Below the pieces are notes generated by a model, which worked only from the letters and a program-made list of their open reading frames with translations, searched no databases and was not told the DNA's origin. Positions 22,198-50,006 of a stretch of DNA of 64,000 nucleotides are shown here, in pieces. Origin of the DNA: Clostridia bacterium (GTDB taxonomy: Bacteria > Bacillota > Clostridia > Oscillospirales > CAG-382); assembly GCA_017521025.1 (NCBI GenBank), contig JAFXEB010000003.1:55506-119505 (forward strand), given 5' to 3'. Each line of letters begins with the position of its first letter. The first letter of the stretch is position 1. The position numbers were made by a program, and so were the translations under genes.

Positions 22198-24075
22198 ATG
22201 CTGAAGAAACTATTAAAGCCTCTTGTATCCTTTGCGGTTACGGCACTCCTTGTGATGAACATAGCCTCCTGCGGTAAGCCGCTGCCTCCCTCGCAAAGCA
22301 CAGAGGACGGCAGTCGGACTGACTATAGCTCCACCCCCGAGTCACTAACGGGAGTTGAGGGAGATAGTGAAGTCACCTCGGAACCTGTTGAATCAGGCGC
22401 CGACGCTGATGTAAGCGTAGACTTTACAGCTACCGACACCGATATGTTTACTGACCGTGATTACAGAACGGAGTATGACAGCACCCCTGCTGTAGACATA
22501 ACACTGGGCGGCACCTCCATTACCGCAAACTCTGCTAATGTCAGCGTTGAAGGCGCCGTAGCTACGATAAAAGACGATGGCACCTACGTTTTAAGGGGTA
22601 CGCTAACGAATGGTATGATAATAGTTGATGCAGGCGAAAGTGCAAAGCCCCAGCTTGTCCTCGACGGTGCAAGTATCACCAGCAGTACGGGTGCGCCTAT
22701 CTATATAAAAAGCGCAAATAAGGTGTTTATCACTCTTGCGGAGGGTAGTAACAATACTCTTTCCAATGGCGGTAGCTTTACCCAAACAGACGAAAATAAT
22801 GTTGACGGCGTCATATATTCAAAAACCGACCTTACAATCAACGGACAAGGTGCGCTTACCCTTTCTTCTCCTGCGGGCCACGGCGTTGCATGCAAGGACG
22901 ATTTGGCTATCACGGGGGGCACCTATAACATTACCACCGCTTCACATGGCATAGATGCTAATGACAGCGTGCGTATCTGCGGCGGCGTGTTTGAAGCCGA
23001 TTGCGGTAAGGACGGCATCCACGTAGAAAACAGCGAGGATGCTACCGAGGGTTACGTATACATCTCCGGTGGCGGCTTTAAGATCAAGGCTCAGGGTGAC
23101 GGAATCAGCGGCGCAGTTTACGTGCAGATAAAGGACGGCACCTTCGATATTAATGCAGGTGGCGGCAGTGGCAACGCAAGTGCAGGCGGCTATGGCGGCT
23201 ATATGGGCAGCTATGGTGGCAATACAGATAGTGACAGCACAAGCACAAAGGGAATCAAAGCGACAGGTGCGATGCTCATAAGCGGAGGCAGCTTTAAGAT
23301 AAACTCTGCCGACGATGCGCTTCACGTTAACGGCAACCTCACAGTAGAGAACGGCGAATTTGAAATATCCACAGGTGATGACGGCGCACACGCTGACGAG
23401 ACCCTTATTGTAAGTGGCGGCAAGATATCCATCACCAAAAGCTACGAGGGTCTTGAGGCGCTCCACGTTCAGGTGGCAGGCGGCGAGATTAGCCTTATTG
23501 CAAGTGATGACGGCATCAACGCCGCAGGCGGTGTAGACAACAGCGGCACCGGCGGCGCTTTTGGTAATGATTATTTCGGCGGTGGTAGACCCGGCGGCAG
23601 ACCCGGTGGCGGCGGCAAGCCCGGCGGCGGTGGTATGTCCTCCGGTAACGGCAGTATAGTCATAAGCGGCGGCAGTCTGTACGTTCAGGCATCGGGTGAC
23701 GGCATAGACGCAAACGGTACATTGGAGATAAAGGGTGGCTATACGGTTGTCTGCGGTCCCACAAGGGGCGATACCGCAACCCTCGACTATGACAGAAGCG
23801 CAACCATAAGCGGCGGCACCTTTATCGGCACGGGCGCATCGGGTGGCATGGCGCAAAGCTTCAGCGCCTCCCCTCAGGGTGTCATAAGTGTAAGCCTCGG
23901 CAACCAAAGTGCAGGGACAAAGCTTTCTGTCTCCGATCCGAGCGGTAAAGAGCTCATAAACCATTGTCCCGAGCTCGATTATGCGTTGCTCATTTTCAGC
24001 TCACCTGAGGTAGTGAGTGGCACCTCCTATACAATAAACGTAGGCTCCTCAAACGGAACAGCTCAAGCGAGATAA
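22198..24075 (+). CDS. Lipoprotein with parallel beta-helix carbohydrate-binding domain (Cthe_2159-like)
   Basis: Lipobox VMNIASC. About 10 repeats of the pattern (I/V)xGGxFxIxxxxDGIxxN, for example ITGGTYNITTASHGIDAN and ISGGSLYVQASGDGIDAN. Also a Gly/Pro linker. Confidence 0.6.
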   Translation: MLKKLLKPLVSFAVTALLVMNIASCGKPLPPSQSTEDGSRTDYSSTPESLTGVEGDSEVTSEPVESGADADVSVDFTATDTDMFTDRDYRTEYDSTPAVDITLGGTSITANSANVSVEGAVATIKDDGTYVLRGTLTNGMIIVDAGESAKPQLVLDGASITSSTGAPIYIKSANKVFITLAEGSNNTLSNGGSFTQTDENNVDGVIYSKTDLTINGQGALTLSSPAGHGVACKDDLAITGGTYNITTASHGIDANDSVRICGGVFEADCGKDGIHVENSEDATEGYVYISGGGFKIKAQGDGISGAVYVQIKDGTFDINAGGGSGNASAGGYGGYMGSYGGNTDSDSTSTKGIKATGAMLISGGSFKINSADDALHVNGNLTVENGEFEISTGDDGAHADETLIVSGGKISITKSYEGLEALHVQVAGGEISLIASDDGINAAGGVDNSGTGGAFGNDYFGGGRPGGRPGGGGKPGGGGMSSGNGSIVISGGSLYVQASGDGIDANGTLEIKGGYTVVCGPTRGDTATLDYDRSATISGGTFIGTGASGGMAQSFSASPQGVISVSLGNQSAGTKLSVSDPSGKELINHCPELDYALLIFSSPEVVSGTSYTINVGSSNGTAQAR

Positions 24076-26389: not shown

Positions 26390-26727
26390 TTATCTTATGA
26401 AATGCACTAAAACTTGACATAGACATTGCATTTTGCATATATCCCTCTCAAAGGCACAAGATATTGTATTGTTCTATTTCTCGGTTTGCATTTGGCAACC
26501 CCGGTGTGTTGTGGCACAACACAATGAAAATTGGTAAAATTTTTGGTACGGTTGTTCATCAGGTTAGTTTGATTTTTCCTTGCAGACAACCAAACGCCTG
26601 TTGCTTCTTTTGGGTTGTCAAATCGGTATATACATCCAAAGTTGTAGAAATGTCAGCGTGTCCCATAATACTTCTTCACAACCATAAAGAAAAAAGCCTA
26701 GTTATACTAGACTTTTTCGACAGACTG

Positions 26728-26761: not shown

Positions 26762-29700
26762 TTATTTCTCGCGATATCTTACATAGTGTTGAACATTAGA
26801 AATCTCACCGCCATTAGTAACCTGCGTAGTCGATTCATTTCCTGCTGTCACCTTTTGGTATTGGTAGATCCTTTGGTAATCGGTGTATGTGCTTGTGTAG
26901 TAATCGAACCTGTACCACCTATACGAACCTTGCGATGATGCGTATGATGTTCTGTCGGTCACCTTGTACACACCCATACCTGACGTCGCAGATCCTACAC
27001 CGGAAGTGCCTTGATATACATAGTTTGTGGTAGAGGTAAATGCACCAAAGTACTTATAATTGTATCCTGTATGCTTGTTCTCAAGGCCTTTATAAGCGCA
27101 AATTATGCGATTACCAGCATTAGCACCACCACAATCATACATCCAGTGCCAATATACGTATCCCGCCCAAGAATTTGAAACCTCTCGTTTTGTAGTTCCG
27201 TTATCATAAGCTGTATATGGAGATTTACTAAAAGACTGATAAATGCTATTGGATGTATCAAACCCGTTGTGAAATGTTGCATAATTGGTCGATCCGCTTC
27301 CTGTCTGATTCCAATAACTACCAATTGGTGTCCATCCACTCAAAGAGGAGCTTGTTGATTCTGTTGTTTGGGTTCTGGTATATGTCCATTTGTTTTCTTC
27401 AACTTTGGCACTTGAAGGCACATTAGAGGCCAAAACCCAATCTGATAACGGATTCAAAGTCCATTGTGCATAAATTGTAGTGTTTCCTGCTCCCATGGTT
27501 GTCGAGGAAGTAACCTTACTACCACCACTTGCCGCAGTATACCATCCACTAAAGGTGTAGTAATCTCTTGTAGGTGTCGGCAATGACCCATATGTGCTTC
27601 CATAATTAACATTATTAGAAGAAGTCGCTACACTGCCGCCATTCGCATTATAAGAAAGTGTATAGGAATTTATGGTCCACTGTGCAAATAATGTTTGTGC
27701 AGATGTAATTGACACAGAGGTAGATGAAGTAATCTTTGTTCCTCCATTTGTTGACGTATACCATCCATTGAATGTGTATCCAGTTCTTGTGGGAGTGGGT
27801 AGAGTTCCATAGGTAGAGCCAAATGTTACAGTTGTACTTGATGTTGACACGCTACCTCCGTTAGCGTTGAAGGAGACCGTACTCTTAATAATGCTCCACT
27901 GCGCATACAATGTCTGGGCAGATGTGATTGACACCTTCGTCGACGAAGTCACTTTAGTTCCGCCACTCGCTGCAGTGTACCAACCGTTAAAGGTGTATCC
28001 GCTTCTTGTAGGAGTTGGCATAGAACCATAGGTAGCATCGTATGTTACATTTGCACTTGAGGTAGATACACTACCTCCGTTAGCATTGAAAGCAACAGCA
28101 TAACTGTTTGCCTTCCACTGTGCATAAAGTGTTTGGTTGGCGGCAGTGGAGTATGTGGAATCCCCAGAAATCTTTGTTCCACCACTTGCCGCAGTATACC
28201 ATCCATTGAAGGTATATCCTGTTCTACTTACGGTACCGAGAGCACCATATTTAGAACCAAACTGCACATTCTTACTTGAGGGTGCTGACCTGCCACCATT
28301 CGAGTTAAACGATACGGAGTATGTATTTGCTTTCCATATAGCGTAAATAGTATGATTAGATGGCGTTGTAATAGAAGTATTTGCTGTTACCTCCACACCT
28401 TCAGATTTTGCAGAATACCAACCCACAAAGGTATATCCTGTTCTCGTGGGAGTAGGCAGAGTTCCATATGCATCCGACAAATAAGTGGATTTACTGCTAG
28501 GATTTACTGTGCCACCGTTCGCATCGTATGTTACAGTAATTGGTTGCTTGCCCTTACTTACGTAAATAACAATGATGGAATCAGGCAGTTGAGCTGTACC
28601 TGCGCCAGGGGATTGGCTAATAACACTACCTGCAGGAACAGTAGAATCATAATTCTCAAGAACCGTGACCTTAAAGCCCTGCTCCTTTAATATTTCCTCT
28701 GCCTCGGCTTGGGACTTTCCAATCACATCAGCTACATCAATAGTTTCACGTCCACTGGATACAACAATTGTGATTTGATCACCACGTTTTACGCTGTCGC
28801 CAGCAGCAACACTTTGACTAAGAACATGACCTTCTGCTACGGCATCAGTCTTCTTGTATTCTACCACCACAACAAGCCCTTTGGTGTTTAGAGTGTTTTC
28901 GGCATTTTCCTTGCTCTGTCCAACAACATTAGGCATATCAAACGCAGCAGGGCCAATCGAGATTGTCAACGTGATCTTGGTACCTTCATCTAGCTTAGTT
29001 CCAGCTTCTACACTCTGCGCAATAACTGAACCATACGCAACATTATCATCATGTTTTTCAATAATGTCCGGTTCTGCTAATCCAGCTTGCAGAAGTTTTG
29101 AAATAGCATCATCTTTCGTATCCCAAATCAAATAGGGAACAACAGAAATACCATTTTCGGGAGACGCCACACCCTTACCGCTACTAATCATAAGCAAAAC
29201 AGTTCCGTTAATATCCATGTAAGAACCACCGACTGGAGTTTGCAAAATGATTTTACCCGCAGGAATATATTCGGATTCAATAGACCCGTCTGTAGAAGCG
29301 AGCAATTTTCCTTCCGAAATTAGTTGCAAGGCTTCATCTTTATACAATCCCTCAACATCCGGAACTGTTACGATATTTTCAGGTATTACAATTTCTTCCG
29401 TAAAATTTGAAAATTTAATAACGCCTGTCAACAGCAATGTGCTAAAAATCAAAATTACAGATAGGAAGGAAGGCGCAAGAATTTTTAACCACAATGGCCA
29501 AGAATATATATCTATCTTTTTAATCTTTCCATATATTCTCTTTACAGGAGGATCTGCATTAAGATCTTTAATAAATGTAGCGATGTCAGGTGTTCTATCC
29601 TCAATCCGAACATTCATTGCGTTAAGAATTGCATTTTCACGATTGGGGGAAATTTTCTTGTTTATCTTATGAGGCTCCTCCAGAATATCTTTGTTTTGGT

Positions 29701-30526
29701 TCTCACACTTTGTGCGACGTTCCATCGCATCTGGAGGTGTCTTACCGGTTATCATCTTGTATAAAGTAGATGCAATGGCATACACATCCGTATGCGGTCC
29801 CTGATCTCCTCTGCTTCGATACTGTTCCTCTGGAGAGTAACCCGGCTTGATAATAACAGTCAAGCTTCTACTATGAGATGTTGTAGCATATCTTGACGCG
29901 CCAAAGTCAATAAGCTTTACTTCGCCAGATTTTGTAAGGAATATGTTGTCCGGTGCAATATCTCTATGAAGCAATCCCTCGTCGTGAACAGCTTGAAGCG
30001 ATTCCATCACGGGCATCAGCATTGCTACAGCTACATCTTCAGGGATTGTCTTTTCTCTTCTCAGATACTCTGTCAGTGTTTCGCCATCGAGAAATTCCAT
30101 TATGATGTATGCAGTATCATTTTCTTCAAAGCTATCAAAGATCTTTACGATACCCTGCTCATTTTGAAACTTTGCCAGATGCTTCGCTTCCTCAACGAAC
30201 TTCCTAAGCCCGTCATGAAACTGTTCATTCTTCTCGCCGTTAAAAACGGTTACCTGAGATTGTCCGGGCATTCTTGTGGAGAATTCACCAGGCAAATACT
30301 CTTTAATAGCCACCTTTTGCTCAAGCTTGCCGTCCCAACCTAGATAGGTAACACCAAAGCCTCCGTAACCAAGAACCTTGCCAACGATATATCTATCATA
30401 CAGCAATGTACCCGGTTCAATATGGATTGCTTCCTCAGCATGAGTTCCTACGACATATCCACAATGCGGACATATCTCAAATTCATCGCCGAAGAGTTCC
30501 ATACATCCCAAACATCTTTTACTCAC
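26762..30526 (-). CDS. Ser/Thr protein kinase: N-terminal zinc ribbon, Hanks kinase, TM, 4 PASTA, 5 Listeria-Bacteroides (Flg_new) repeats, unknown C-terminal domain
   Basis: CLGCMELFGDEFEICPHCG; GYGGFGVTY...VAIK...HRDIAPDN...DFGAS...PGYSPEE. TM at aa 342-370. PASTA-like units at aa ~386-660. Five ~72-aa repeats at aa 663-1025. Y/W/T-rich tail at aa 1026-1254. Confidence 0.9.
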   Translation of the reverse strand: MSKRCLGCMELFGDEFEICPHCGYVVGTHAEEAIHIEPGTLLYDRYIVGKVLGYGGFGVTYLGWDGKLEQKVAIKEYLPGEFSTRMPGQSQVTVFNGEKNEQFHDGLRKFVEEAKHLAKFQNEQGIVKIFDSFEENDTAYIIMEFLDGETLTEYLRREKTIPEDVAVAMLMPVMESLQAVHDEGLLHRDIAPDNIFLTKSGEVKLIDFGASRYATTSHSRSLTVIIKPGYSPEEQYRSRGDQGPHTDVYAIASTLYKMITGKTPPDAMERRTKCENQNKDILEEPHKINKKISPNRENAILNAMNVRIEDRTPDIATFIKDLNADPPVKRIYGKIKKIDIYSWPLWLKILAPSFLSVILIFSTLLLTGVIKFSNFTEEIVIPENIVTVPDVEGLYKDEALQLISEGKLLASTDGSIESEYIPAGKIILQTPVGGSYMDINGTVLLMISSGKGVASPENGISVVPYLIWDTKDDAISKLLQAGLAEPDIIEKHDDNVAYGSVIAQSVEAGTKLDEGTKITLTISIGPAAFDMPNVVGQSKENAENTLNTKGLVVVVEYKKTDAVAEGHVLSQSVAAGDSVKRGDQITIVVSSGRETIDVADVIGKSQAEAEEILKEQGFKVTVLENYDSTVPAGSVISQSPGAGTAQLPDSIIVIYVSKGKQPITVTYDANGGTVNPSSKSTYLSDAYGTLPTPTRTGYTFVGWYSAKSEGVEVTANTSITTPSNHTIYAIWKANTYSVSFNSNGGRSAPSSKNVQFGSKYGALGTVSRTGYTFNGWYTAASGGTKISGDSTYSTAANQTLYAQWKANSYAVAFNANGGSVSTSSANVTYDATYGSMPTPTRSGYTFNGWYTAASGGTKVTSSTKVSITSAQTLYAQWSIIKSTVSFNANGGSVSTSSTTVTFGSTYGTLPTPTRTGYTFNGWYTSTNGGTKITSSTSVSITSAQTLFAQWTINSYTLSYNANGGSVATSSNNVNYGSTYGSLPTPTRDYYTFSGWYTAASGGSKVTSSTTMGAGNTTIYAQWTLNPLSDWVLASNVPSSAKVEENKWTYTRTQTTESTSSSLSGWTPIGSYWNQTGSGSTNYATFHNGFDTSNSIYQSFSKSPYTAYDNGTTKREVSNSWAGYVYWHWMYDCGGANAGNRIICAYKGLENKHTGYNYKYFGAFTSTTNYVYQGTSGVGSATSGMGVYKVTDRTSYASSQGSYRWYRFDYYTSTYTDYQRIYQYQKVTAGNESTTQVTNGGEISNVQHYVRYREK
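27452..28540 (-). repeat. Five tandem ~216-222-nt coding repeats (Flg_new / Listeria-Bacteroides repeat domains)
   Basis: The consensus xYxVxFNANGGSVSTSSxxVTYGSTYGxLPTPTRTGYTFNGWYTAASGGTKVTSSTxVxxxxxQTLYAQW recurs five times. Confidence 0.85.
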
Positions 30527-32502
30527 TTTTTCTCGACCTTCCCTTCAAACACGAACTTCTGGTGAATATCAGATATTGCAGCAAGATACTTTGACTGTAT
30601 TTTAGATTCAAAGCAAATTGCATTTACAGGAATCTGTCCATCATTACATTCGCCGATCATCAGATAGCTTTGGTACACATTACCAAGCATCCAAGAAAGC
30701 AACCTTTCTGCCGCTTCGATTTCGGCCTGGTTGCCATCGCCTATGCTCCACTCATATATGTATCTGCAATAAATTTCATCACTGTCGTAATACACATATG
30801 TCTTTTCATAATTTGTTAGAGTTGTCCTGATTTCGTTCAAAACCATCGTGGACGACAACATCACAGGACTTGTATTTTCGCTATTATTAAGGAACTCTTC
30901 CTTTTCGCAGAATCCTTCCAAGATAAAGTTTGCCTGTAGCAAACCAAGGTATCTGTCGTCATATGCAATATTTGTAGCGTCGAAATCATCAATGTTTCCA
31001 AAGTATTTATCCGAGTAGTCAATACAGCTGGCACCACTGGTTACAACATAAGCAATTGGCACTTCAATAGCAAGAGGCATTTGCTTTTTGTTGCTGTAAA
31101 AGTCGTTGTACTGACTTAGGAACATTGCGTTATTGAATTGATCAGAAGACAGCACATTATCAAGATCTGTTGCCTGCTCAATAATATCCGCAGGCAATCC
31201 AGAACTCTCAAATAATGTCGGCAGCTTCCCTTGCTTTTCCGCTTCTCTAATGCGGTTTTCATATTCCGATTCAGGTATTGCAATTACTTCTACCGTTACT
31301 CCTTCATATTTTTGCTCGAAGTCGGCCTTGATGGCAAGCATGGCATCTTCTTCGGAAGAACCGTCAGCTACAGAAAACCATACAACGATATCTGCCGGGT
31401 CAAGGAATTGCTCCTCCTGTTTATTGAGGTATGTATCGTATGCAAAGAAGGAGCCAATCAGCAGCACCAAGCAAGCAACTGCAATTCCAACAAACCTCTT
31501 TAGACTTCTCCGCTTCTTTTCTTTGGCAAGTGGAATAATCTTTCGCTCACCATTAATAGCACTCAAGAATTCCTGCACAGTTTTAAAGCGCATATGCTTC
31601 TCGATTGCCATAGCCTTCATAATCGCATTGCTAAGATTCTCCGAGACTAGCGGATTGAGTAGATGCGGAGGAACAACTTCGTCATTAATTTTACGATTAG
31701 TGGACTCATCGGGTTTCACACCGGTTAGCATCACATACAATGAAGCACCCAGAGCATAAATATCAGTCCACGGCCCGATATTCTTACTATTGTCATACTG
31801 CTCGGTGGGAGAATATCCAGGCTTAAGAATGATATCGATCACATCGTCGGTGCTGTCTGCTAATTTAGCAGCACCAAGATCCATCAGCTTAATCTTAATT
31901 TCTTTTCCGGAGCAAATATAAATATTATCCGGTGCGACATCTCTATGGACAATATTTTGTTCGTGCAAAGACTTAAGTGCATTTCCGACCTCGTTAGCAA
32001 TCATCAATGCAAAGTCAATATCAATTCTGTCTCCCGATTGATTAAGGTAATCGTTCAACGCAACACCACGAAGCAATTCCATAACGATATATGCTGTGTT
32101 GTTCTCTTCAAAGAATTCAAAAACATTGGGAATGCTTCTATGGGAACCGAATTTTGCCATATTTCTTGCCTCTGCAAGAAATCTTTCCTTCCGGTATTCG
32201 AATTCCTCCATTGACTTCTTTGTAATAATGAGGTTCTTCAATCCCTCTGCTCTTGTGACAAGGCGACTTACAAAGAATTCCTTCACAGCAACAATTGTCT
32301 CGAGTTTCAAATCCCACGCACTATAAACAATACCAAAGCCACCAGATCCAACAGCTTGTCCCAAAATATATCTGTTAGCCAGTATCGTGCCGGGCACAAG
32401 GTGGATTGGTTCCTTTGGCTTAGTTATCTCAACACTGCCGCAATGTGGGCAAACCTGAAATGCATCCTCATATTCCTTAAAGCAGGCATAACATCTCTTC
32501 AT
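30523..32502 (-). CDS. Ser/Thr protein kinase: N-terminal zinc ribbon, Hanks kinase (DLG variant), TM, SBP-like ectodomain
   Basis: CYACFKEYEDAFQVCPHCG; GSGGFGIVY...VAVK...HRDVAPDN...MDLGAAK...PGYSPTEQ. TM FVGIAVACLVLLIGSFFAY. The ectodomain VVWFSVADGS...FEQKYEGVTVEVIAIPESEYENRI...KLPTLFES resembles family-1 solute-binding proteins. It overlaps the downstream kinase gene by 4 nt. Confidence 0.85.
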   Translation of the reverse strand: MKRCYACFKEYEDAFQVCPHCGSVEITKPKEPIHLVPGTILANRYILGQAVGSGGFGIVYSAWDLKLETIVAVKEFFVSRLVTRAEGLKNLIITKKSMEEFEYRKERFLAEARNMAKFGSHRSIPNVFEFFEENNTAYIVMELLRGVALNDYLNQSGDRIDIDFALMIANEVGNALKSLHEQNIVHRDVAPDNIYICSGKEIKIKLMDLGAAKLADSTDDVIDIILKPGYSPTEQYDNSKNIGPWTDIYALGASLYVMLTGVKPDESTNRKINDEVVPPHLLNPLVSENLSNAIMKAMAIEKHMRFKTVQEFLSAINGERKIIPLAKEKKRRSLKRFVGIAVACLVLLIGSFFAYDTYLNKQEEQFLDPADIVVWFSVADGSSEEDAMLAIKADFEQKYEGVTVEVIAIPESEYENRIREAEKQGKLPTLFESSGLPADIIEQATDLDNVLSSDQFNNAMFLSQYNDFYSNKKQMPLAIEVPIAYVVTSGASCIDYSDKYFGNIDDFDATNIAYDDRYLGLLQANFILEGFCEKEEFLNNSENTSPVMLSSTMVLNEIRTTLTNYEKTYVYYDSDEIYCRYIYEWSIGDGNQAEIEAAERLLSWMLGNVYQSYLMIGECNDGQIPVNAICFESKIQSKYLAAISDIHQKFVFEGKVEKK

Positions 32503-32508
32503 GAGCCT

Positions 32509-33471
32509 TTACTCTCCTTTTGGCATAAACTCTTCCCAAGAGAATCCTTCTCCGCATAGAGGCATAAACATAAACTTACTATCACCCAACTCAATAACAT
32601 CTCTTGTAGCAAGTTGCTTCGACTCCGTGATGTAATCCTCGTTCAAGTATGTAAGACCGCTACTATCACCAGGTTGCAAGAAGAAGTTCCTCTTCTTGGG
32701 CTCGTACACAATCAATGCATGCTTAATTCTTGAAATGCTATTATCGTCCGTAATCACAATTCTATTTTCTTCGCTTCTGCCTATAGAATTTTTTCCTGCG
32801 AAAATGCTGAAGCACTCACCAAAATGACAGCCACCAATGCAGACAAGCCAACCTACAACGGGTTCTGCAAAACGCTTAGGTTGATTTTGAGCAGGCGTAG
32901 AACCTGTAGCAGAACTAAAATAGCTCATTGTCTTTCCTTCGTTGCTTGCAGAAGCATTCTTTACCGCCTCCTTCAGCGAGGACGGCGCTTCATTCTGCTT
33001 GGGTTCTTCCTTCGGAGTCTCATTTGCCTTTACCGGTTCTTCAACAACTATCGGCGCATCACTTGCAGGCACAACATTTTCAGATTGCTTTGTTTGAGCC
33101 GCCACATTTTCCACAACATTACTTGCTTTCGATTCGCCGTTATTGTCAGAGTGAGAAGATGTCTGCCAAAAATCCAATGTAGGATTCTTCTTAAGAGGAG
33201 GAGTAGATTGGTTCTCCGGAACCTTCCGTTCCATTACATCAGTAGGCGTACTTCCATTGCCAAATTCAGATTGCGGAACTCTTGATGGAGTTTTGATTAT
33301 AGGCTGAACATCAGCATCTTTCTCCTTGCGGCCTCTTCCCCAAAAGCCCTTCTTTTCTTCTTTGACCGGTGCCGCATTTTCAGCAACCATAGCGGTCTCG
33401 CCACAATGCGGACAGGTGCTATAGGAATCTCCATCAAAGAAATGGCCGTTTTTACATCTAATTACATTCAT
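32509..33471 (-). CDS. Zinc-ribbon / disordered linker / C-terminal FHA-domain protein
   Basis: RCKNGHFFDGDSYSTCPHCG; low-complexity P/E/K/N-rich middle. The FHA-like C-terminus reads ...NSIGRSEENRIVITDDNSISRIKHALIVYEPKKRNFFLQPGDSSGLTYLN... Confidence 0.75.
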   Translation of the reverse strand: MNVIRCKNGHFFDGDSYSTCPHCGETAMVAENAAPVKEEKKGFWGRGRKEKDADVQPIIKTPSRVPQSEFGNGSTPTDVMERKVPENQSTPPLKKNPTLDFWQTSSHSDNNGESKASNVVENVAAQTKQSENVVPASDAPIVVEEPVKANETPKEEPKQNEAPSSLKEAVKNASASNEGKTMSYFSSATGSTPAQNQPKRFAEPVVGWLVCIGGCHFGECFSIFAGKNSIGRSEENRIVITDDNSISRIKHALIVYEPKKRNFFLQPGDSSGLTYLNEDYITESKQLATRDVIELGDSKFMFMPLCGEGFSWEEFMPKGE

Positions 33472-33485
33472 TATTTACCCCTCCG

Positions 33486-34283
33486 TCACTTAATCTTTAT
33501 AAGAGCAACAGTCATATTGTCTCTCGACTCATTACTGTTTTTCGCATTCTTTTTCGCCTTCATTTCAAGGGCTTGAATTGCTTCGCCGATATTGCTGAAA
33601 TTATCGACAATACGAGCAATTTCAGAATCGGAAACCACCTTGTATAAGCCATCCGACATTATGATTATTTTATCATCCTTCATAAGCTCAAAAGGATTTT
33701 CCGAATAATCAATCAACGCAAGATTTCCTATCCCAAGGAAACTGATCAGTGCCTCTCCACGAATATCTTCTTGCTTAAAATCTGACTCACCTATAAGTCC
33801 GGCATTCAATTTCTCAACAAGAACGGTGTGATAATTATGATCTTGAGTAAGCTGAACCATTTCTCCATCTCTTATCAAGTAGGCTCTGCTATCACCAACC
33901 GAACACCACATCAGTTTTTTCCGATTTATCAGAATAGCCACTAATGTGCTTCCCGCTTTTAACAGACCACCCTGCTGATTCTTTAGTTGAGCGATTGATG
34001 AGTCAGTCTTCTTTGCAACATCCACCATAAAATCCGTCTGATTGGAAATCACAAAGTTTTCTGCATATCGCGACAGGAAAGTCTGCACCGCCAACTCACT
34101 GGCGAGCTTTCCGCCTTCGTGACCACCCATTCCATCACAGACAACCACCAGGCCCTCGTCCTGCTTCAGAATATAGCCAAAGCTATCCTGTTGATCCTCG
34201 CGATCACCAATAACTGACAGCGCAGCCATCTGGAAGGCAGAGTTTTCATCTTTCACCAATTGTTGGTCGCTATGATATAGCAT
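33486..34283 (-). CDS. PP2C (PPM) family Ser/Thr phosphatase
   Basis: GDREDQQDSFG...VVCDGMGGHEGGKLAS...IIMSDGLY...DNMTVALI. Confidence 0.88.
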   Translation of the reverse strand: MLYHSDQQLVKDENSAFQMAALSVIGDREDQQDSFGYILKQDEGLVVVCDGMGGHEGGKLASELAVQTFLSRYAENFVISNQTDFMVDVAKKTDSSIAQLKNQQGGLLKAGSTLVAILINRKKLMWCSVGDSRAYLIRDGEMVQLTQDHNYHTVLVEKLNAGLIGESDFKQEDIRGEALISFLGIGNLALIDYSENPFELMKDDKIIIMSDGLYKVVSDSEIARIVDNFSNIGEAIQALEMKAKKNAKNSNESRDNMTVALIKIK

Positions 34284-34294
34284 TTAGATCCCTC

Positions 34295-35029
34295 CTATTC
34301 ATTCCAAACAGCTATCGCTGAATAATTGTCCATATTTTTTCCTTCGCCGTTTGTTTGGACAATCCTGATCATATTAGTCAGCCATTCTTCAACAGAACTC
34401 GCTTTCTTCAATTGTGCACACATTTCCTTCTCATCAATCAGTTCCCAAAATCCATCGGAGCACAAGAGGAACGCTTGACACTTCTTTAGAGGAATTGGAG
34501 CCATAAGTTCATACCTTGGCTCATCCCATTCAACCCCCATTACGCGCAACAGCGTGTTGCGATCAGGGTGGTACCTAATTTGCGCTTCCTTGATTTCTCT
34601 TGAGAGAACTAACATCTGCGGAATACTGTGATCCAACGTTCTTGTTTTAACCTTGTTTTTATAAAACACATAGCCCCTTGAATCACCGATATGCCCGATA
34701 TATGCGTTTCGGTCATCTGTAACCACAGCTACACCGGTGGTTTTCATTTTTCTTTTTGCATTACGAACTTTCTGCTCAGCCATTAGGATATCCTGAGACG
34801 CAGTAAATGCCTGGCCAATAAAATTAACAGCATCATCTGTTTTGTTGAATTGATCCTCAAACACCGCAACAACCAATGATGAGGCAACATCACCCATGCC
34901 GTGACCTCCCAATCCATCACAGAGAATATAACAGGTGTTTTCGCCGTTTTTGAAAACACCCACGGAGTCCTCGTTGATTTGACGACCACCTACATTTGTA
35001 AAAATTGCATGTTTGAAATTACCACTCAT
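34295..35029 (-). CDS. PP2C (PPM) family Ser/Thr phosphatase (second paralogue)
   Basis: GGRQINEDSVG...ILCDGLGGHGMGDVAS...LLCSDGFWE...DNYSAIAV. Confidence 0.88.
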   Translation of the reverse strand: MSGNFKHAIFTNVGGRQINEDSVGVFKNGENTCYILCDGLGGHGMGDVASSLVVAVFEDQFNKTDDAVNFIGQAFTASQDILMAEQKVRNAKRKMKTTGVAVVTDDRNAYIGHIGDSRGYVFYKNKVKTRTLDHSIPQMLVLSREIKEAQIRYHPDRNTLLRVMGVEWDEPRYELMAPIPLKKCQAFLLCSDGFWELIDEKEMCAQLKKASSVEEWLTNMIRIVQTNGEGKNMDNYSAIAVWNE

Positions 35030-35368: not shown

Positions 35369-35381
35369 ATAGACACCTCTT

Positions 35382-38914: not shown

Positions 38915-38927
38915 GATTCGTCCCTTC

Positions 38928-39818: not shown

Positions 39819-39848
39819 AACATTCACCTCCCACACCCTACCTCAATC

Positions 39849-40121: not shown

Positions 40122-41261
40122 TTAGTCTATGTGAAACTTAAATTCTTCGTTAGCAAACCTAATTATAGATCCATCATTCAACAGTTCTTTTACTCCTGGC
40201 TGAGTTCTTCTTCCGTTAAGGTATGTACCATTCGTAGAGCCCAAGTCTACCACATAGAATTTTCCTTGATCCTTGATAATATCAGCATGTTTCCTGCTCA
40301 CATTATTGTTGAAGATGCGATAATCCGTGACCCCTTCCATCTTTCCAACTCGAAAAGGAAATTTATTTATGATAATCTTACCTTCTCTTGAACAGTCTTC
40401 AAGCCAAACACTTTGAGCCATTCGCTGCGAGCCTCTAAAAACTGTCACTACACCATTCTCATCTTTATTTACGGATATATCGCTGCGCTTCTGCCTTTCT
40501 GCATCAGTCTCTGACTTCTTTACTGTTTCCGGCCAAAACTCCGAATCGATTGTCGGTGTGTTTTTGGGGGCAGTATTTGTTGATCGAGATAATAATCGCT
40601 TGCCACAGAACGGGCAGATTTCCTCTGACGTGTTTACTTTAGAACCACAGGCAGGGCACAACCCGCTGCGATTGGTGTCACCTTTCTGTTGAAGAAGGGC
40701 TTCTGCCACTTTATCGCAATATGATTCTAACATTCCTACCGTATAGGCTGTAACGCTATTTAAATCCTGCACTAACATTTGAACATATCCAATGTCTTCC
40801 CCTGCTTCGAAGTTGCATTGTGCGACCGCCTCGAGAAGAAAAGACTTCAGATTCCCTGTGCTTTCAAAAGGTTGTAAGGGAACATACATCATATACACAC
40901 GCCAAGTAGAAGGATCTATGTATACAGCTTGTGCTGTCCACATTAAAAGATCTTTGCTGAAACGGTTTTTTTCTATCCCTTTGAGAATCAGAGCGATGTG
41001 TCTCAAAAGGACTACAAACAGGCGGCGATTCATTCCTTGAAGGTGCAAGAACTCAGATAACGGAATCAGTCCCTCTGTATTGTATGTTAAGTTGGTCTTA
41101 AATCCAGACGTATCAACATCAAAAAGAAGCAATCCTTCAACGGTGCCCTCAGAGATGGCATTAACCTCACGCTGATTTAGTTGTTGCCCTTTTTTTCCTT
41201 TGACCTCTCTTATCAATTTCCTCTTTCGCACATCTATCACCTCTAATCCATAATTGGACAT
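40122..41261 (-). CDS. Three-part protein: unknown N-terminal domain, zinc ribbon, C-terminal FHA domain
   Basis: CPACGSKVNTSEEICPFCG in the middle. FHA: FRVGKMEGVTDYRIFNNNVSRKHADIIKDQGKFYVVDLGSTNGTYLNG. Confidence 0.8.
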   Translation of the reverse strand: MSNYGLEVIDVRKRKLIREVKGKKGQQLNQREVNAISEGTVEGLLLFDVDTSGFKTNLTYNTEGLIPLSEFLHLQGMNRRLFVVLLRHIALILKGIEKNRFSKDLLMWTAQAVYIDPSTWRVYMMYVPLQPFESTGNLKSFLLEAVAQCNFEAGEDIGYVQMLVQDLNSVTAYTVGMLESYCDKVAEALLQQKGDTNRSGLCPACGSKVNTSEEICPFCGKRLLSRSTNTAPKNTPTIDSEFWPETVKKSETDAERQKRSDISVNKDENGVVTVFRGSQRMAQSVWLEDCSREGKIIINKFPFRVGKMEGVTDYRIFNNNVSRKHADIIKDQGKFYVVDLGSTNGTYLNGRRTQPGVKELLNDGSIIRFANEEFKFHID

Positions 41262-45183: not shown

Positions 45184-45435
45184 TTAGATAAGCATAAGTT
45201 TTGTACCGTTTCCAATCTCCAGTTCAAAAACGGTACCGTTAATATCGAGTATCTCTCCGGTTGTCTTGCGTGCGAGCACCGTATCTCGGGACGGTATGAA
45301 CTGTCCTTCTGATAGTTCAGATATCGCACGCTTTATCAGTTCCGTAACCTCAAATATTTGTGACTGGGTCGGGATGAAAATATCGTAGGACCTGTTGAGA
45401 ATTGGAATGTAAACATTTACAAGCACCTTGTTCAT
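45184..45435 (-). CDS. YukD/EsaB-like ubiquitin-fold T7SS protein
   Basis: 83 aa, VNVYIPILNRSYDIFIPTQSQIFEVTELI...GTKLMLI. It overlaps the essC stop by 4 nt. Confidence 0.7.
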   Translation of the reverse strand: MNKVLVNVYIPILNRSYDIFIPTQSQIFEVTELIKRAISELSEGQFIPSRDTVLARKTTGEILDINGTVFELEIGNGTKLMLI

Positions 45436-48400
45436 TCTAAATCAGCCCCTTTCTTTTCAGCCGAAAGCAGTTTTGCAAGAATCGGACGATTCCGGTAGAT
45501 GTAATAGCCAAAGTGTTTGCCAACATCTTCATACATTTCGCTTGTGATCTTGTTAATCTTAAATGCGAACTGATCTGCGACACCTTCACCTACCCAAATG
45601 CCATCTGCACCAATGATGTGCTGTTTATACCACTGATCGTATTCATACTTCTTTATCTGAGAAGCCGAATCGCAAAGCACAAAATGGATCTTATATATCG
45701 GATCTGCCTTGACCAGTAATGTCGCCAACTTATCCTTTGCATCATCGCTCAGTTGTTCGAAGAGTCGCTTTACGCCAAAAATGACATAGCAACGCTCATC
45801 GAACTGTTCCAGTACAGAAGCATCTAAATTTGCATCCTTGTACAGATTGTTTCGAAGTACCATTTCATTGAACATCTCCAAAACAATATCAGCAAAGTTT
45901 AACTTAGTCACAAATTTCTCACACTTGTCAAGTTCTTTCTCTGTATCCACTACCGTAACATGGCATCCTCTTGCAATAATAGGAACCAGTTCCTCCACAA
46001 AGTCGACCATTTCATGTGCGTCTTGAGAAAGCACAGGAAGAACGACTTTCTTTTCAAGGTTAAAGGTGATGATTTCAAGAGAATTCTTTGCCACGCCCAC
46101 CGGAATCGATGCCAAACCATTAATTTTTTGCTCAACGAACTCCGAGTCAACGATCTGCGGAAGAATCGGAATGGGCTTAGCCGTTACAGTTGTTTTAGCC
46201 TTGATACCTTCACAGAACTGACGAATGAAATTCTGTACATCCTGTTCCTCAGTACAATAGGCTGTCTGGAATTCATAAACTCGATCCAGTGCAACAAGGC
46301 CACGCCCTTTATGCTTCGAAGGAATTACGCCATCGTTCTTACCAACTATCGTTACATAGTCCGTTGCATCATTTAACTGCATAGTAAGCAACATTTTAAA
46401 ATTCTGCTGAACTCTGTAACGAACAGCATTTGAGTGCGTAGCTGTAACAACAAAGTAAATACCATATTTAACTCCGTCTCGTGTTAGAAGCGCAAACTCC
46501 TCCTGATAATCTTCCATTTGCTCCGCAAATCCGGAGAAGTTGTTCAAAACCACGACAATATTCGGCACAGTTTTTCCGCTGTTCTTGCAGTAGTTGGTAT
46601 AATCACCGCCATAAGAAGAAAACAAACTGCGTCTCGCTTCCATCTCCTTCAGCAACATTTTCAGCAAGTTGACGCATTTCTCATCATCAGATGCGGTTAC
46701 AACCCCACCAACATGTGGTGCAGAAGAAAACGCCTTTAGCGTCTCGGAGCCATAATCCATTAAATATAGATTTACTTCGACCGGTGTGTGATTTTTAATT
46801 AACGAATAACAGAGTGTGGTCGCAAATGTTGTCTTGCCGTTTCCTGTTGCACCAAAGACAAGGCAGTTACCCTCTGCGGAAAGTGGTATTGTAAGAACGT
46901 CTTGTTTTTGATTGAACGGGTCGTCATACTCACCCACAACTGGATTAAGCACCGTACCGTACGATCTCTTCGCATATTTTTCTTCCAACTGATCCACATA
47001 AACGTGGGAGGGAATCGGTTCCAACCACAACGTTCTCGCAGTAACACCTTCGTCAACTGCCAAATCCGAGAGGTACTTTACAACAGAAACAATTTGTTTA
47101 ATCTTGCTTCCGCTTGTTGCTTTTGGGTTTGGTTTAACACTAATGATCGGTCGCCCAAGCGAATCAACAACTTGTATGCTTGCATCAATAGGCTTCTCGA
47201 CAACATCACTCGGTTGATATTCCGCTCCACACCACGCAGACTGTCCCATCGCAAAAAGCTCGTTAAATCCAACTTGCAAGTAGAATCTACCCGTTTGAGA
47301 AAGTTCTGCGGCATCTGGACACTTTATCATATCCTGCGAATCGGACTTTTCCTGAACCTTCAAGCAGACTCTGAAACGGCTGTTACTCCAAATTTGGTCA
47401 TCAACAACGCCACTCGGTTTCTGCGTAGCAAGAATCAAATGAACACCTAGGCTACGACCAATTCTTGCCGCACTGATCAACTGTTCCATGAACTCAGGCT
47501 GTTGTGTCTTCAATTCTGCAAACTCATCCGAGATGATGAATAGATGTGGCATCGGATCGCTTACAATTTTTTCTCGATAAAGTTGTTGATACTTATAGAT
47601 ATCCATTGTTCCTTCATTAGATATCCTCCGTGCCTCGTTAAACACTGCCTGTCTTCTTCTAAGTTCACTTTGAATGGACACCAATGAACGAGTAATTGCT
47701 GCACCATCAAGATTCGTAATCGTTCCCGCTAGGTGCGGCAACTTAATTCCCTTGTCTGAATTTTCAAAAGCACCCGTCAAGCCGCCACCTTTATAGTCAA
47801 TCAGAATAAAGGATACTTCGTCAGGATGATAATTTACCGCCAAGGATAAAATATATGTAATAATGAATTCCGATTTGCCGGAACCGGTCATGCCAGCAAC
47901 CAATCCATGAGGGCCGTGATACTTTTCGTGCAGATCAAGCATAAAACTATCGCCATCCGCTCCGATGCCTATAGGGGTCTGCAGTGTCTTGGTTGGATTA
48001 TTCTCTTTCCATCTGGCGAGAGAGTTGAGATGCTCAACCTTACCAACATTGAACATTTCCAAGAATGTCATCATGTTGGGCAAAACAAAACTTTTCTCTG
48101 CAACATCAAGTTCAATGTTTGCGAGTTTTGTTGACATATTTTCAAAGACCATCTTGTTTGCAACATCTGCAGCAAAGGAAACTTGTTTTCCAGACGTATC
48201 ATCCTTGTCAAAGAGCTTAGAATTCGTTCCGTTAGCGTGTATGATAGTTCTTGTTTCTTTTGGGAAATCACTAAATTTGTCACCGGTGATGATTGCGGTA
48301 AAGCCGAGGTTATCTTCACTCAAAATTTGTTTTAAAGCCGTGCATTTTTTTCTTAATGTGTCACTAGTAATGATACAAACATAATACGGCGAAAACTCTT

Positions 48401-50006
48401 CATCGCGGTGTTGAGACAGGTTTTTCCTTGTTCCCACCTCTTTTTCAAGAATATTCGAAATTTCTTTTACATCATCGAGAGTGTGTGCATGATATCTTAT
48501 TGTTCTGCTGTTATTCCACGCATGAGGCAAATATTTAGTAAATCCCCAAGTCGCATCGTCTTCATCTCCTGTGATCATAACGAGTTTGACTTCGTCATAT
48601 CCATGCAAAGCAACCATTTGCAAAATGAGCGACATGATCATATTGTCACGGCATTCCTTGTCTCCATAAACGCCGATTGCCACATTCTCTGTAAGAGAAA
48701 TACTAATAGGCACATTCTTAAGTTGCTTCGGCTCTTCCGCAAGTGCCAACATCGCATTTTGTAAGGAGTCATCGTCCATTGTGAACTTCTTGTCTTGGTA
48801 CTTTACATCGAGATTCATATTGACCGTGCCCGTACCTAGGCGTAGTCTTAAGAAATCGCTCTGCCCAATTGAACGTTCCCATAAGTTTGGCTTTGTCCGA
48901 ATAACTCTTTCCAGGCACTCCTCTTGAGATATGAATGTCTCTTTGAGAATTCCCGCCTGTTGTTTTGCAATATCCTTAATTTGATCGCCTATTTCGTTCA
49001 GATAGGCAAAGTATTTCTTCTGTCGTTTCTTTTCGTGCTTAATTTTCTCTTTTTTCTCATGCTTCTTAGTGAGAATCGGCCAGAGCACAGTTCCTAAAAG
49101 CATACTGACGGACATAACCAATGTAGGCAGGGCCTGTGTAATTTTTCCGCCGTTAGCAATCACGTTGGACACAGAAAGAATACCCGTACTAACTGAGGTC
49201 ATTGCCATAGTCAGTGAAGGCCCTAGCATCAAGGCCAGCGGCACAGTATCAATTTTCTGTGTCTGTGGGGGAGGATCGATATGTATCTCCTCTCGCTTTA
49301 CCTCTCGATGAAAACGGGGAGATCTAAAGAAAAACTTTTTTTCCGGAAGCTCAGCCACCTCTTCCGATGGCTGAACTGCCTGCTGTTCATATCTTGAAAG
49401 CCCCTCGGCTCTGATTTTTAGTTGCATATCAGGATTATTAATTGCGAAATAGGAATCACCTATCACAATTTTTAATCCCATAATGTAGATGAAATCGCCA
49501 GGATTCAGCTTTTGAGTTTGAATGCGGAATCCGTTTACATATGTACCGTTTCTACTTCCTAGATCAGTAATCGACCAATTTTCACCATCGTATATCAATT
49601 TTGCATGATAGGTTGAAGCAAATCCATTCGAATAGCAAAAGTTATTATCTTCAGCTCGTCCAATCGTGAAAACAGCGCCCTCATGAACCACAATCTTTGA
49701 CAATGTCTGTCTCGTTTCATCAATCGGTTCAGTAAAAAGGATAACCCTCTCATCGCTATTTTCAATTCTGATATTCAAGAAACTATTTATTGATAGTTCC
49801 GCCTTCTCTATGTGGGTGTTCTTTTCACCTAAAATAGCAACCTTCTTGTTAGACTTTGCGCACCACTTGCCATCATCCGCTTCAATGCTAACCAGTTGAC
49901 GTAGTGTTCCCTTTGCATCGAAGTCGTTCAGCCAATATTGTCCTTTCACTTTATCCGGCAATGTTAAGCTAAACATCTGCTCTGCCTTTATAAGATTAAC
50001 TATCAT
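45432..50006 (-). CDS. essC: EssC/YukB-type T7SS FtsK/SpoIIIE ATPase (N-terminal FHA domains, 2 TM, three P-loop domains)
   Basis: 1524 aa. FHA: FTIGRAEDNNFCYSNGFASTYHAKLIYDGENWSITDLGSRNGTYVNG. TM helices near aa 255-310. Walker A sites GMTGSGKSEF and GATGNGKTTF, plus a third degenerate domain. Confidence 0.9.
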   Translation of the reverse strand: MIVNLIKAEQMFSLTLPDKVKGQYWLNDFDAKGTLRQLVSIEADDGKWCAKSNKKVAILGEKNTHIEKAELSINSFLNIRIENSDERVILFTEPIDETRQTLSKIVVHEGAVFTIGRAEDNNFCYSNGFASTYHAKLIYDGENWSITDLGSRNGTYVNGFRIQTQKLNPGDFIYIMGLKIVIGDSYFAINNPDMQLKIRAEGLSRYEQQAVQPSEEVAELPEKKFFFRSPRFHREVKREEIHIDPPPQTQKIDTVPLALMLGPSLTMAMTSVSTGILSVSNVIANGGKITQALPTLVMSVSMLLGTVLWPILTKKHEKKEKIKHEKKRQKKYFAYLNEIGDQIKDIAKQQAGILKETFISQEECLERVIRTKPNLWERSIGQSDFLRLRLGTGTVNMNLDVKYQDKKFTMDDDSLQNAMLALAEEPKQLKNVPISISLTENVAIGVYGDKECRDNMIMSLILQMVALHGYDEVKLVMITGDEDDATWGFTKYLPHAWNNSRTIRYHAHTLDDVKEISNILEKEVGTRKNLSQHRDEEFSPYYVCIITSDTLRKKCTALKQILSEDNLGFTAIITGDKFSDFPKETRTIIHANGTNSKLFDKDDTSGKQVSFAADVANKMVFENMSTKLANIELDVAEKSFVLPNMMTFLEMFNVGKVEHLNSLARWKENNPTKTLQTPIGIGADGDSFMLDLHEKYHGPHGLVAGMTGSGKSEFIITYILSLAVNYHPDEVSFILIDYKGGGLTGAFENSDKGIKLPHLAGTITNLDGAAITRSLVSIQSELRRRQAVFNEARRISNEGTMDIYKYQQLYREKIVSDPMPHLFIISDEFAELKTQQPEFMEQLISAARIGRSLGVHLILATQKPSGVVDDQIWSNSRFRVCLKVQEKSDSQDMIKCPDAAELSQTGRFYLQVGFNELFAMGQSAWCGAEYQPSDVVEKPIDASIQVVDSLGRPIISVKPNPKATSGSKIKQIVSVVKYLSDLAVDEGVTARTLWLEPIPSHVYVDQLEEKYAKRSYGTVLNPVVGEYDDPFNQKQDVLTIPLSAEGNCLVFGATGNGKTTFATTLCYSLIKNHTPVEVNLYLMDYGSETLKAFSSAPHVGGVVTASDDEKCVNLLKMLLKEMEARRSLFSSYGGDYTNYCKNSGKTVPNIVVVLNNFSGFAEQMEDYQEEFALLTRDGVKYGIYFVVTATHSNAVRYRVQQNFKMLLTMQLNDATDYVTIVGKNDGVIPSKHKGRGLVALDRVYEFQTAYCTEEQDVQNFIRQFCEGIKAKTTVTAKPIPILPQIVDSEFVEQKINGLASIPVGVAKNSLEIITFNLEKKVVLPVLSQDAHEMVDFVEELVPIIARGCHVTVVDTEKELDKCEKFVTKLNFADIVLEMFNEMVLRNNLYKDANLDASVLEQFDERCYVIFGVKRLFEQLSDDAKDKLATLLVKADPIYKIHFVLCDSASQIKKYEYDQWYKQHIIGADGIWVGEGVADQFAFKINKITSEMYEDVGKHFGYYIYRNRPILAKLLSAEKKGADLE

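Follow-up and report, generated by a model that had tools for sequence, protein, structure and literature searches.

A putative PpkA-like receptor kinase with a PASTA, B-repeat and tip ectodomain in a type VII secretion island of a Clostridia bacterium

Introduction

Why should a membrane kinase that is encoded beside a secretion system carry the extracellular stalk of an adhesin? The question is raised by a gene at positions 26762..30526 (minus strand) of a 64,000-nucleotide stretch of DNA (hereafter the window, which is the whole stretch analysed: contig JAFXEB010000003.1, positions 55,506 to 119,505, of assembly GCA_017521025.1) from a rumen or gut Clostridia bacterium. In its product, a Ser/Thr kinase domain is followed by a membrane helix, four PASTA domains, five Listeria-Bacteroides (Flg_new) repeats, and a C-terminal domain that we call the tip, and the gene lies at the end of a cluster for a type VII secretion system (T7SS). 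We judge it fairly probable that the product is a single-pass receptor Ser/Thr kinase in a phospho-signalling module of a T7SSe-like island, controlling secretion through threonine phosphorylation. It is probably a surface sensor of a bacterial weapon rather than a housekeeping cell-wall kinase.

Systems of the T7SSb type kill neighbouring bacteria in a contact-dependent manner, and to our knowledge no firing trigger of these machines has been identified. Earlier work found kinases, phosphatases, and FHA proteins in loci of T7SS variants: those of the T7SSe and T7SSj types include genes for membrane kinases, for PPM phosphatases, and for proteins with DUF6382 and FHA, and the FHA domain of their EssC keeps its phosphothreonine-binding motif (Garrett, Higginson & Palmer 2024, PMC11217815). 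The same paper describes helical or TPR ectodomains for the T7SS-variant kinases, mentions PASTA domains zero times, and does not state what the kinases sense. In type VI secretion systems (T6SS), PpkA is a membrane threonine kinase that, in concert with the phosphatase PppA and an FHA protein, activates secretion (PMC3953482, PMC6082577). Control of variant T7SS by kinase, phosphatase, and FHA protein has already been proposed in print; what is new here is the ectodomain of PASTA domains, stalk, and tip, which points to what such systems may sense.

Domain architecture and gene model

The coding sequence and its parts are listed below, with the terminator-like element that follows the gene.

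26762..30526, minus strand: coding sequence of the PASTA kinase, 1254 amino acids (aa), GTG start, from the open-reading-frame reading of the window
30458..30514, minus strand: N-terminal zinc ribbon, aa 5–23 (CLGC...CPHC), from direct sequence reading
29534..30391, minus strand: Ser/Thr kinase domain, PpkA-like, aa 46–331 (Pfam Pkinase, 1.5e-37)
29417..29500, minus strand: single transmembrane helix, about aa 343–370, from hydrophobicity, after a K/R-rich stretch
28547..29389, minus strand: four PASTA domains, aa 380–660 (Pfam PF03793, 4 stretches)
27452..28540, minus strand: five Flg_new (Listeria-Bacteroides) repeats, aa 663–1025 (Pfam PF09479)
26765..27451, minus strand: predicted all-beta tip domain, the C-terminal 229 aa, aa 1026–1254 (motif KR...GYVYWHWMYD)
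26690..26718, minus strand: terminator-like hairpin, 44 nucleotides (nt) past the stop codon, from a consensus scan only

Profile scans bear out the domain assignments of a previous model-made annotation, hereafter the sequence-only reading, which had recognised PASTA domains and five Flg_new repeats at aa 663–1025. PF03793 matches in four stretches (3.1e-52, 174.8 bits against a cutoff of 23.2) and PF09479 in five (6.1e-89, 292.6 bits against a cutoff of 27), and the NCBIfam model TIGR02543 covers the same repeat array, also in five stretches (4e-40). The features described by that reading are real and far beyond chance. The kinase domain carries the motifs VAIK, HRDIAPDN, DFG, and GYSPEEQ. 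Judged by hydrophobicity, the kinase is predicted to be cytoplasmic and aa 371–1254 external.

The protein is identical to NCBI entry MBR6593716.1, named 'InlB B-repeat-containing protein [Clostridia bacterium]', and it is under this name that automatic annotation conceals these kinases. Our literature searches, for Flg_new or InlB B-repeats with kinase and for T7SS with PpkA, returned no description of this architecture.

The GTG start codon overlaps the TGA stop codon of the upstream kinase gene in the tetranucleotide GTGA, and because of this overlap translational coupling of the two kinases is suggested. In another assembly of the same strain (P0187/L080), the gene is called from an internal ATG at codon 9, which gives 1246 aa (window 30502–30526). 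That start removes the first CxxC of the zinc ribbon, whose pattern, CxxC-x(8–20)-CxxC, is kept in all T7SS-linked orthologs, and the GTG start with its GTGA overlap appears to be the better gene model. At the other end of the gene, the hairpin at 26690..26718 likely marks the end of the operon or island.

The kinase core

In a search of all PDB sequences, the kinase core scored highest with 5hnv (151.6 bits, E = 3.5e-43), a chain whose label 'PpkA' is the depositors' name, whereas Stk1, PknB, and StkP reach 84–93 bits (Stk1 92.8). For the paralogous kinase encoded immediately upstream, the same chain scores 153.8 bits versus 95.9 bits for the best classical PASTA kinase; taken as a pair, the two island kinases reach 152–154 bits with 'PpkA' and 60–96 bits with Stk1, PknB, and StkP. 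In the alignment with 5hnv, both sequences have an insert behind the VAIK strand, and neither has the usual lysine in the catalytic loop, which reads HRDIAPDN here and HRDISLDN in the PpkA chain, as opposed to HRDxKPxN.

The sequence-only reading had placed the kinase in the PknB/PrkC/Stk1 type. The Stk1-family build of Hanks-type kinase, membrane helix, and tandem PASTA domains is indeed present, and the PASTA-kinase equivalog NF033483 is the top NCBIfam match of the whole protein; its score, however, is 336.3 bits, below the 450-bit cutoff. The PDB scores, the HRDIAPDN loop, and this shortfall rule out the label for the core, which appears to belong to the PpkA-like and not the PknB/PrkC type.

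The motifs VAIK, HRD, DFG, and the substrate-loop motif are kept in nearly all PASTA-type orthologs, with few misses (for example, DFG in P0134 and P0091), and HRD[IV][AS]PDN and the zinc ribbon are kept in nearly all T7SS-linked orthologs examined. Two of the SBP-type paralogs (the type of the upstream kinase) gave no HRD match in the motif scan.

It should be noted that the exposed part of the protein also occurs with another kind of kinase. The kinases P0057, P0070, P0073, P0126, and P0131 have an HRDIKPxN loop and no zinc ribbon, yet carry Flg_new repeats and the same tip domain. Because some tip-bearing kinases are of this kind, the Flg_new-tip probe appears to have been recruited by at least two kinase lineages.

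The secretion island and its conserved cassette

The G+C content is 0.38–0.44 across about 26–50 kb versus 0.45–0.52 in the flanks, and all genes of this stretch are on the minus strand. The low G+C content and the EssC and WXG100 genes confirm that the kinase gene is island-borne and stands beside a secretion system, as had been supposed. Other genes of the island are the following.

30523..32502, minus strand: upstream paralog kinase, 659 aa, with zinc ribbon, PpkA-like kinase, membrane helix, and ectodomain like a solute-binding protein (SBP), from domain scans
32509..33471, minus strand: zinc-ribbon-FHA (Zn-FHA) protein (Pfam FHA, 9.1e-10)
33486–34283 and 34295–35029, minus strand: two PP2C-type phosphatases, from a domain scan
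40122..41261, minus strand: TseJ-like protein with DUF6382, zinc ribbon, and FHA (component definition from PMC11217815)
41934..44372, minus strand: lipoprotein-like surface protein, 812 aa, with C-terminal Big_2, from a domain scan
44483–44782 and 44797–45099, minus strand: two WXG100 genes (2.3e-14 and 1.1e-16)
45184–45435, minus strand: YukD-like ubiquitin-fold gene (23.3 bits, below the 27-bit cutoff)
45432..50006, minus strand: EssC/TseC-type ATPase, 1524 aa, with N-terminal FHA (FtsK_SpoIIIE 3.7e-53, FHA 6.6e-16)

The T7SSe set is represented by the TseC with its FHA domain, the WXG100 pair, a ubiquitin-like protein (the sub-cutoff YukD match), a membrane kinase, a PPM phosphatase, and the DUF6382-FHA protein. 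Small membrane proteins, TseH and TseK, are a further T7SSe criterion, and the island encodes an 85-aa protein with a membrane segment and a zinc ribbon; it also holds a gene for an XRE-type regulator. In the FHA sequence of EssC, the motif GR...SxxH...NG is readable. The 812-aa Big_2 lipoprotein is a possible counterpart of TseI, which is large, Sec-exported, and Ig-rich with a C-terminal membrane helix; the protein here has no obvious C-terminal helix. In its predicted gene content, the island matches T7SSe (or related T7SSj) organisation.

The PASTA kinase is the last gene of a cassette in the order PP2C, PP2C, Zn-FHA, kinase with SBP-like ectodomain, PASTA kinase. A scan of a genome collection found eight orthologous loci with kinase-domain identities of 68–97%, in metagenome-assembled genomes (MAGs) labelled Oscillospiraceae, Lachnospiraceae, Butyrivibrio, and Eubacteriales. 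The cassette order is kept in L001 and L003–L008 wherever upstream sequence exists, and also in L082–L084, loci fetched by exact-protein look-up; the SBP-type kinase adjoins the PASTA kinase at every ortholog locus with enough upstream flank. T7SS markers (EssC, WXG100, DUF4176, DUF6382-FHA) occur at distances of up to 10 kb in the window and its counterpart L080, and in L001, L003, L005, L006, L008, L083, and L084. Counted over the nine loci with enough flank, WXG100, DUF4176, TseJ, or EssC stands beside the cassette in eight.

The combination of a PASTA kinase with Flg_new repeats and a tip is no one-off extension. A large ortholog family shares the build, and the finding appears more general than first assumed; by the domain and synteny comparisons, what emerges is a widespread, mis-annotated family of putative T7SS-linked, PpkA-like receptor kinases.

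Length changes in the repeat array

The five repeat units occupy aa 663–735, 736–808, 809–881, 882–954, and 955–1025; four of them are 73 aa (219 nt) long and the last 71 aa. The array had been described with a period of 216–222 nt at 27452–28540. The coordinates are exact, and the spacing proves to be uniform at 219 nt.

The units had also been held similar enough in DNA for recombinational expansion or contraction. Pairwise DNA identity between copies is only 56–73%, and the longest exact run, between repeats 2 and 5, is 27 nt, with no other pair exceeding 17 nt; the copies therefore appear to be a poor substrate for frequent recombination or slippage. Because of the same low identity, exact-seed repeat finding and Tandem Repeats Finder, which reports just 1.9 copies, under-report the array. 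Within the window's array, units 3 and 4 resemble each other most (73% nucleotide identity), which fits a comparatively recent duplication.

Repeat number was compared among relatives. The sole other member of the 90% cluster, P0187 (L080/L081), is 100% identical in DNA over 20.5 kb, which makes it the same strain and uninformative, and the strain comparison was therefore made on orthologs with 61–91% identity: the 120 closest clusters out of 5885 kinase hits at E ≤ 1e-20 in a search with aa 1–660. PF09479 is present in most of these orthologs, and the number of Flg_new units per protein ranges from none to six (0 units in 30 proteins, 1 in 29, 2 in 20, 3 in 28, 4 in 10, 5 in 3, and 6 in 1).

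Relatives whose kinase is 91–98% identical lack whole units of the window protein: one (aa 810–882), two (aa 810–882 and 909–981), or three (aa 664–882). These exact 73-aa indels agree with the expectation that repeat number changes among relatives, and gain and loss by 73-aa units appears real on the evolutionary scale. Of the recombination idea, the part concerning unit-length gain and loss stands, and the part concerning DNA similarity is weaker.

Exchange and divergence of the exposed end

The closest fetched genome, an Oscillospiraceae MAG (L001), has a protein that is 88% identical and gapless over aa 1–1025, after which comes a domain of about 200 aa unrelated to the one in the window. 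In the DNA comparison of the window with L001, homology of about 83% ends at window position 27459, which is the border between repeats and tip, and the downstream flank is unrelated. Other orthologs end in three Big_3 domains with a BspA-type leucine-rich repeat (LRR) region, in Big_2, or in other unassigned regions, and the window-type tip domain is found in 50 of the 120 closest orthologs.

Median identity to the window protein falls outward, from 0.86 in the kinase through 0.59 in the PASTA domains and 0.55 in the Flg_new repeats to 0.51 in the tip. Because stalk length and tip vary among close relatives while the kinase stays 93–98% identical, these comparisons suggest that what the PASTA kinase senses evolves fast.

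The SBP-type paralog is 95.6% identical to its L001 counterpart, as against 88% for the PASTA kinase, and because of this difference the two tandem sensors appear to evolve at different rates. The ectodomain of the paralog itself matches SBP_bac_8 weakly, below the cutoff (5.4e-05).

The tip domain

The sequence-only reading had described aa 1026–1254 as a Y/W/T/S-rich domain that it could not assign. The composition is as described (S 30, T 29, Y 27, G 22, and W 8 in 229 aa), and the domain continues to resist assignment. Member-by-member comparison with Pfam at E up to 1 gave nothing consistent, NCBIfam gave nothing, and a profile of 28 tip domains found no match among PDB sequences. An AlphaFold2 model built on an alignment of 35 homologs is confident (mean predicted local distance difference test score, pLDDT, 93.4; predicted template-modelling score, pTM, 0.76) and consists almost entirely of long beta strands. 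Foldseek found no known fold for it in PDB or BFVD: the best E was 0.2 in PDB and 0.08 in BFVD, at a template-modelling score (TM) of about 0.1. The weak rows for picornavirus capsids and phage fibres (E ≥ 0.08, TM about 0.1) were discarded as noise.

A profile search of 1.84 billion representative proteins returned at least 282 clusters at E < 1e-30, and the placement of the domain was assessed in the best 139 representatives. It is mostly C-terminal there, in large secreted proteins and behind Flg_new repeats; 15 of the 139 have it at the N-terminus, right after the signal peptide, and 19 are kinases, 11 of these with PASTA domains. According to the model and these matches, the tip represents an abundant, unannotated, confidently folding domain family of gut and rumen Clostridia surface proteins.

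The argument that the tip is a distal head, drawn from sortase anchors, proved unusable, as none of the 15 proteins with an N-terminal tip has an LPXTG anchor. Two tip-domain proteins end in dockerin-like repeats. The gene of another (L085:6001–7038) lies among those of a wall-polysaccharide locus (PS_pyruv_trans, ABC2_membrane/ABC_tran, Bac_transf, GT4, LytR_cpsA_psr), a hint that the tip may bind a secondary cell-wall polymer. The conserved residues of the tip are aromatic and basic (K-R, Y-W-H-W, R) and have the flavour of a putative glycan-binding site.

Comparison with known systems

One of the closest known parallels to the PASTA kinase is PpkA. To the likenesses of the core (best solved-structure match, insert after VAIK, lysine-free catalytic loop) are added a single-pass membrane topology with an extracytoplasmic sensor and the presence of PP2C and FHA genes in a secretion-system locus. 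Unlike PpkA, the kinase described here occurs in a monoderm host, in a locus with T7SS genes (EssC, WXG100, YukD-like) and not T6SS core genes; its ectodomain is made of PASTA domains, Flg_new repeats, and a new tip in place of the PpkA periplasmic domain; and it has an additional N-terminal zinc ribbon, with two tandem kinases and two phosphatases in the locus.

With the kinases TseD, TsjD, TsdD, and TscD of the T7SS variants c–j, it has in common that it is a membrane Ser/Thr kinase, that its active site is intact, and that its gene belongs to a T7SS cluster; the TseD-type clusters likewise contain PPM phosphatases, a DUF6382-FHA protein, paired WXG100 proteins, a ubiquitin-like protein, and an FHA-bearing EssC. 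As far as the published description allows comparison, the PASTA, Flg_new, and unclassified tip parts and the two tandem kinases set the present locus apart.

The PASTA kinases PknB, PrkC, StkP, Stk1, and IreK are similar in their cytoplasmic Hanks-type kinase, single membrane helix, and array of PASTA domains outside the cell, and for Enterococcus faecalis a link between IreK and induction of the T7SS is cited in PMC11217815. They differ in the clade of the kinase, which here scores below the NF033483 cutoff and lacks the HRDxK lysine, in about 590 extra extracellular residues found here, and in the neighbourhood, which here is a T7SS island instead of prpC-prkC. Fibrillar adhesins and InlB-type proteins, finally, share the tandem Flg_new stalk, the variable repeat number, and the exchanged terminal module. 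In contrast to them, the membrane helix here runs into a kinase, so that binding would become a cytoplasmic signal and not adhesion alone.

Proposed function

By analogy with the PpkA-Fha-PppA pathway of T6SS and with the published proposal for T7SS variants (PMC11217815), the following mechanism may be envisaged. Ligand binding by the ectodomain would cause dimerisation and autophosphorylation of the kinase; the PASTA domains might bind peptidoglycan fragments, and the tip a surface glycan or protein. Phosphothreonines would then be placed on a T7SS component or on the Zn-FHA linker, and the FHA domains of EssC, TseJ, and/or Zn-FHA could recognise them, leading to assembly or firing of the T7SS and toxin export, and the two PP2C phosphatases would reset the system. 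The two kinases would represent two inputs: the SBP-like domain would respond to a small ligand, and the PASTA-stalk-tip ectodomain to wall fragments together with a surface ligand.

Several points weigh against this reading. No experiment links the kinase, or any of the homologs found in this analysis, to secretion. The catalytic-loop lysine is missing, and activity is assumed only since the PpkA chain likewise lacks it. The FHA domain of the Zn-FHA protein deviates from SxxH/NG, the canonical pattern. Extracellular parts often diverge faster, which is by itself no proof of selection on ligand specificity. At one locus (L082:5605–13261), moreover, the cassette has SbcCD and glycosidase genes as neighbours and T7SS genes are absent within 10 kb, and because of this locus the cassette is separable from the secretion genes.

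On typical domain sizes, four PASTA domains, five B-repeats, and the tip would span roughly 30–40 nm, which is comparable with the Gram-positive wall. It is therefore plausible that the ectodomain reaches the cell surface. Contact sensing by the ectodomain is plausible too, and the swapping of tips among relatives favours a tip that would touch the surface of a neighbour. A more specific form of the proposal, which we put forward as doubtful speculation, is that the kinases are target-recognition receptors of the T7SS weapon: on a conserved PpkA-like chassis, a fast-evolving, adhesin-like probe, its stalk varying in length and its tip modules exchangeable, would pass through the wall, touch a particular surface structure of a neighbouring cell or substrate, and fire the T7SS by threonine phosphorylation.

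Alternative explanations

The nearest competitor keeps the proposed signalling and changes the ligand: the tip would bind a polymer of the cell's own wall, and the kinase would monitor envelope integrity or wall thickness. PASTA domains are established peptidoglycan-related sensors, and IreK and TagQRST-PpkA are examples of damage sensing. The tip is terminal in many secreted proteins that lack an LPXTG or terminal membrane anchor, as expected of a wall-binding module; its conserved residues are aromatic and basic; and one tip-domain gene belongs to a wall-polysaccharide locus (pyruvyl transferase, ABC exporter, glycosyltransferases, LytR-CpsA-Psr ligase). That genomic hint, however, is a single locus, the dockerin-like ends of two tip-domain proteins would already provide attachment, and the replacement of the tip by BspA-LRR or Ig-like modules fits variable foreign ligands better than a constant self polymer. 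We regard own-wall sensing as possible, though we lean away from it. It is unlikely, in our judgement, that the cassette serves growth, sporulation, or metabolism as a general signalling module and that its proximity to T7SS genes is incidental. The L082 locus and the differing downstream flanks of the window and L001 would agree with such a module, but T7SS genes adjoin the cassette at eight of nine informative loci, the FHA domains of the island EssC and TseJ need a kinase partner, and kinases occur together with PPM phosphatases in published T7SS variants (PMC11217815).

Two further explanations start from single parts of the protein. An ordinary housekeeping PASTA kinase, an orthologue of PrkC, PknB, or Stk1 that controls growth and cell division and only happens to border the island, would have a membrane helix, four PASTA domains, and PP2C genes nearby, and would give NF033483 as best NCBIfam match, all of which is the case; in addition, no other PASTA-containing open reading frame was found within the 64-kb window. 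The neighbourhood of PrkC is rlmN-prpC-prkC-rsgA, whereas the synteny partners here, across Oscillospiraceae and Lachnospiraceae loci, are T7SS genes; the zinc ribbon, the tandem paralog, and the low-G+C island do not suit a housekeeping gene either. Kinase clade (far closer to PpkA than to Stk1, PknB, or StkP), cutoff (336 versus 450 bits), motifs (no HRDxK lysine), and synteny led us to reject this explanation as very improbable. Hardly credible to us is the remaining one, in which the protein is essentially a surface adhesin and its kinase domain inactive or irrelevant. The name given by PGAP rests on the repeats only, Flg_new stalks with terminal binding domains are reportedly typical of fibrillar adhesins according to a bioRxiv study of 2021, and the missing catalytic-loop lysine could be read in the same sense. 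Yet no part of the protein is better conserved than the kinase (93–98% in close relatives, median 0.86), its VAIK, HRD, DFG, and substrate-loop motifs persist in nearly all PASTA-type orthologs, and the loss of the lysine is common to the crystallised PpkA chain.

With the T7SS-linked receptor kinase as the preferred reading, the family offers a concrete candidate for a T7SS sensor, having a PpkA-homologous core, PASTA domains with an adhesin-type stalk and tip, and strain-level variation confined to the exposed end. If the more speculative form, target recognition by the kinases, is true, it would be a monoderm counterpart of the T6SS PpkA pathway and the first contact sensor described for a T7SS, and the new tip domain would gain a function.

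Other features of the island and its surroundings

CxxC zinc ribbons occur in five island proteins, all encoded on the minus strand. They are N-terminal in both kinases (30458–30514 and the region of 32440–32502) and in the FHA protein (region of 33400–33471), stand between DUF6382 and FHA in TseJ (region of 40590–40660), and are C-terminal in the 85-aa membrane protein (region of 39849–39920). The related locus L083 has even more zinc-ribbon proteins. The ribbons may constitute a shared assembly or interaction module.

A 545-aa protein (36153–37790, minus strand) has an N-terminal Mbeg1/phospholipase-like domain and a helical C-terminus. Its gene is followed by small WXG100-like and Ala/Glu/Lys-repeat proteins (35665–36141, 35382–35927, and 35060–35473) and preceded by a 253-aa lipoprotein (37812–38573). 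From this arrangement, the 545-aa protein and its partners look like a candidate 'reverse' lipase toxin, with C-terminal targeting, and an immunity protein; 'reverse' lipase toxins are mentioned for T7SSe (PMC11217815). Also in the middle of the island are a protein with a microbial-type PARG catalytic domain (38928–39836, minus strand, 1.1e-34) and a small unassigned reading frame (38621–38971, minus strand), which may provide immunity to an ADP-ribosylating toxin.

Two loci of the ortholog survey, L025 and L030, have reading frames of about 700 aa with PASTA domains followed by Flg_new repeats, and local BLAST gave no kinase-domain match in them; they may represent a kinase-less version of the same ectodomain.

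Housekeeping genes flank the island: on one side those for lysyl-tRNA synthetase, CtpB, and FtsEX, and on the other Vut_1, a short-chain dehydrogenase, a HAD hydrolase, and the alpha ribosomal operon. Just outside the island, and unrelated to the present finding, a gene at 22198–24075 on the plus strand encodes a 625-aa lipoprotein with a Cthe_2159 carbohydrate-binding beta-helix (2.8e-96).

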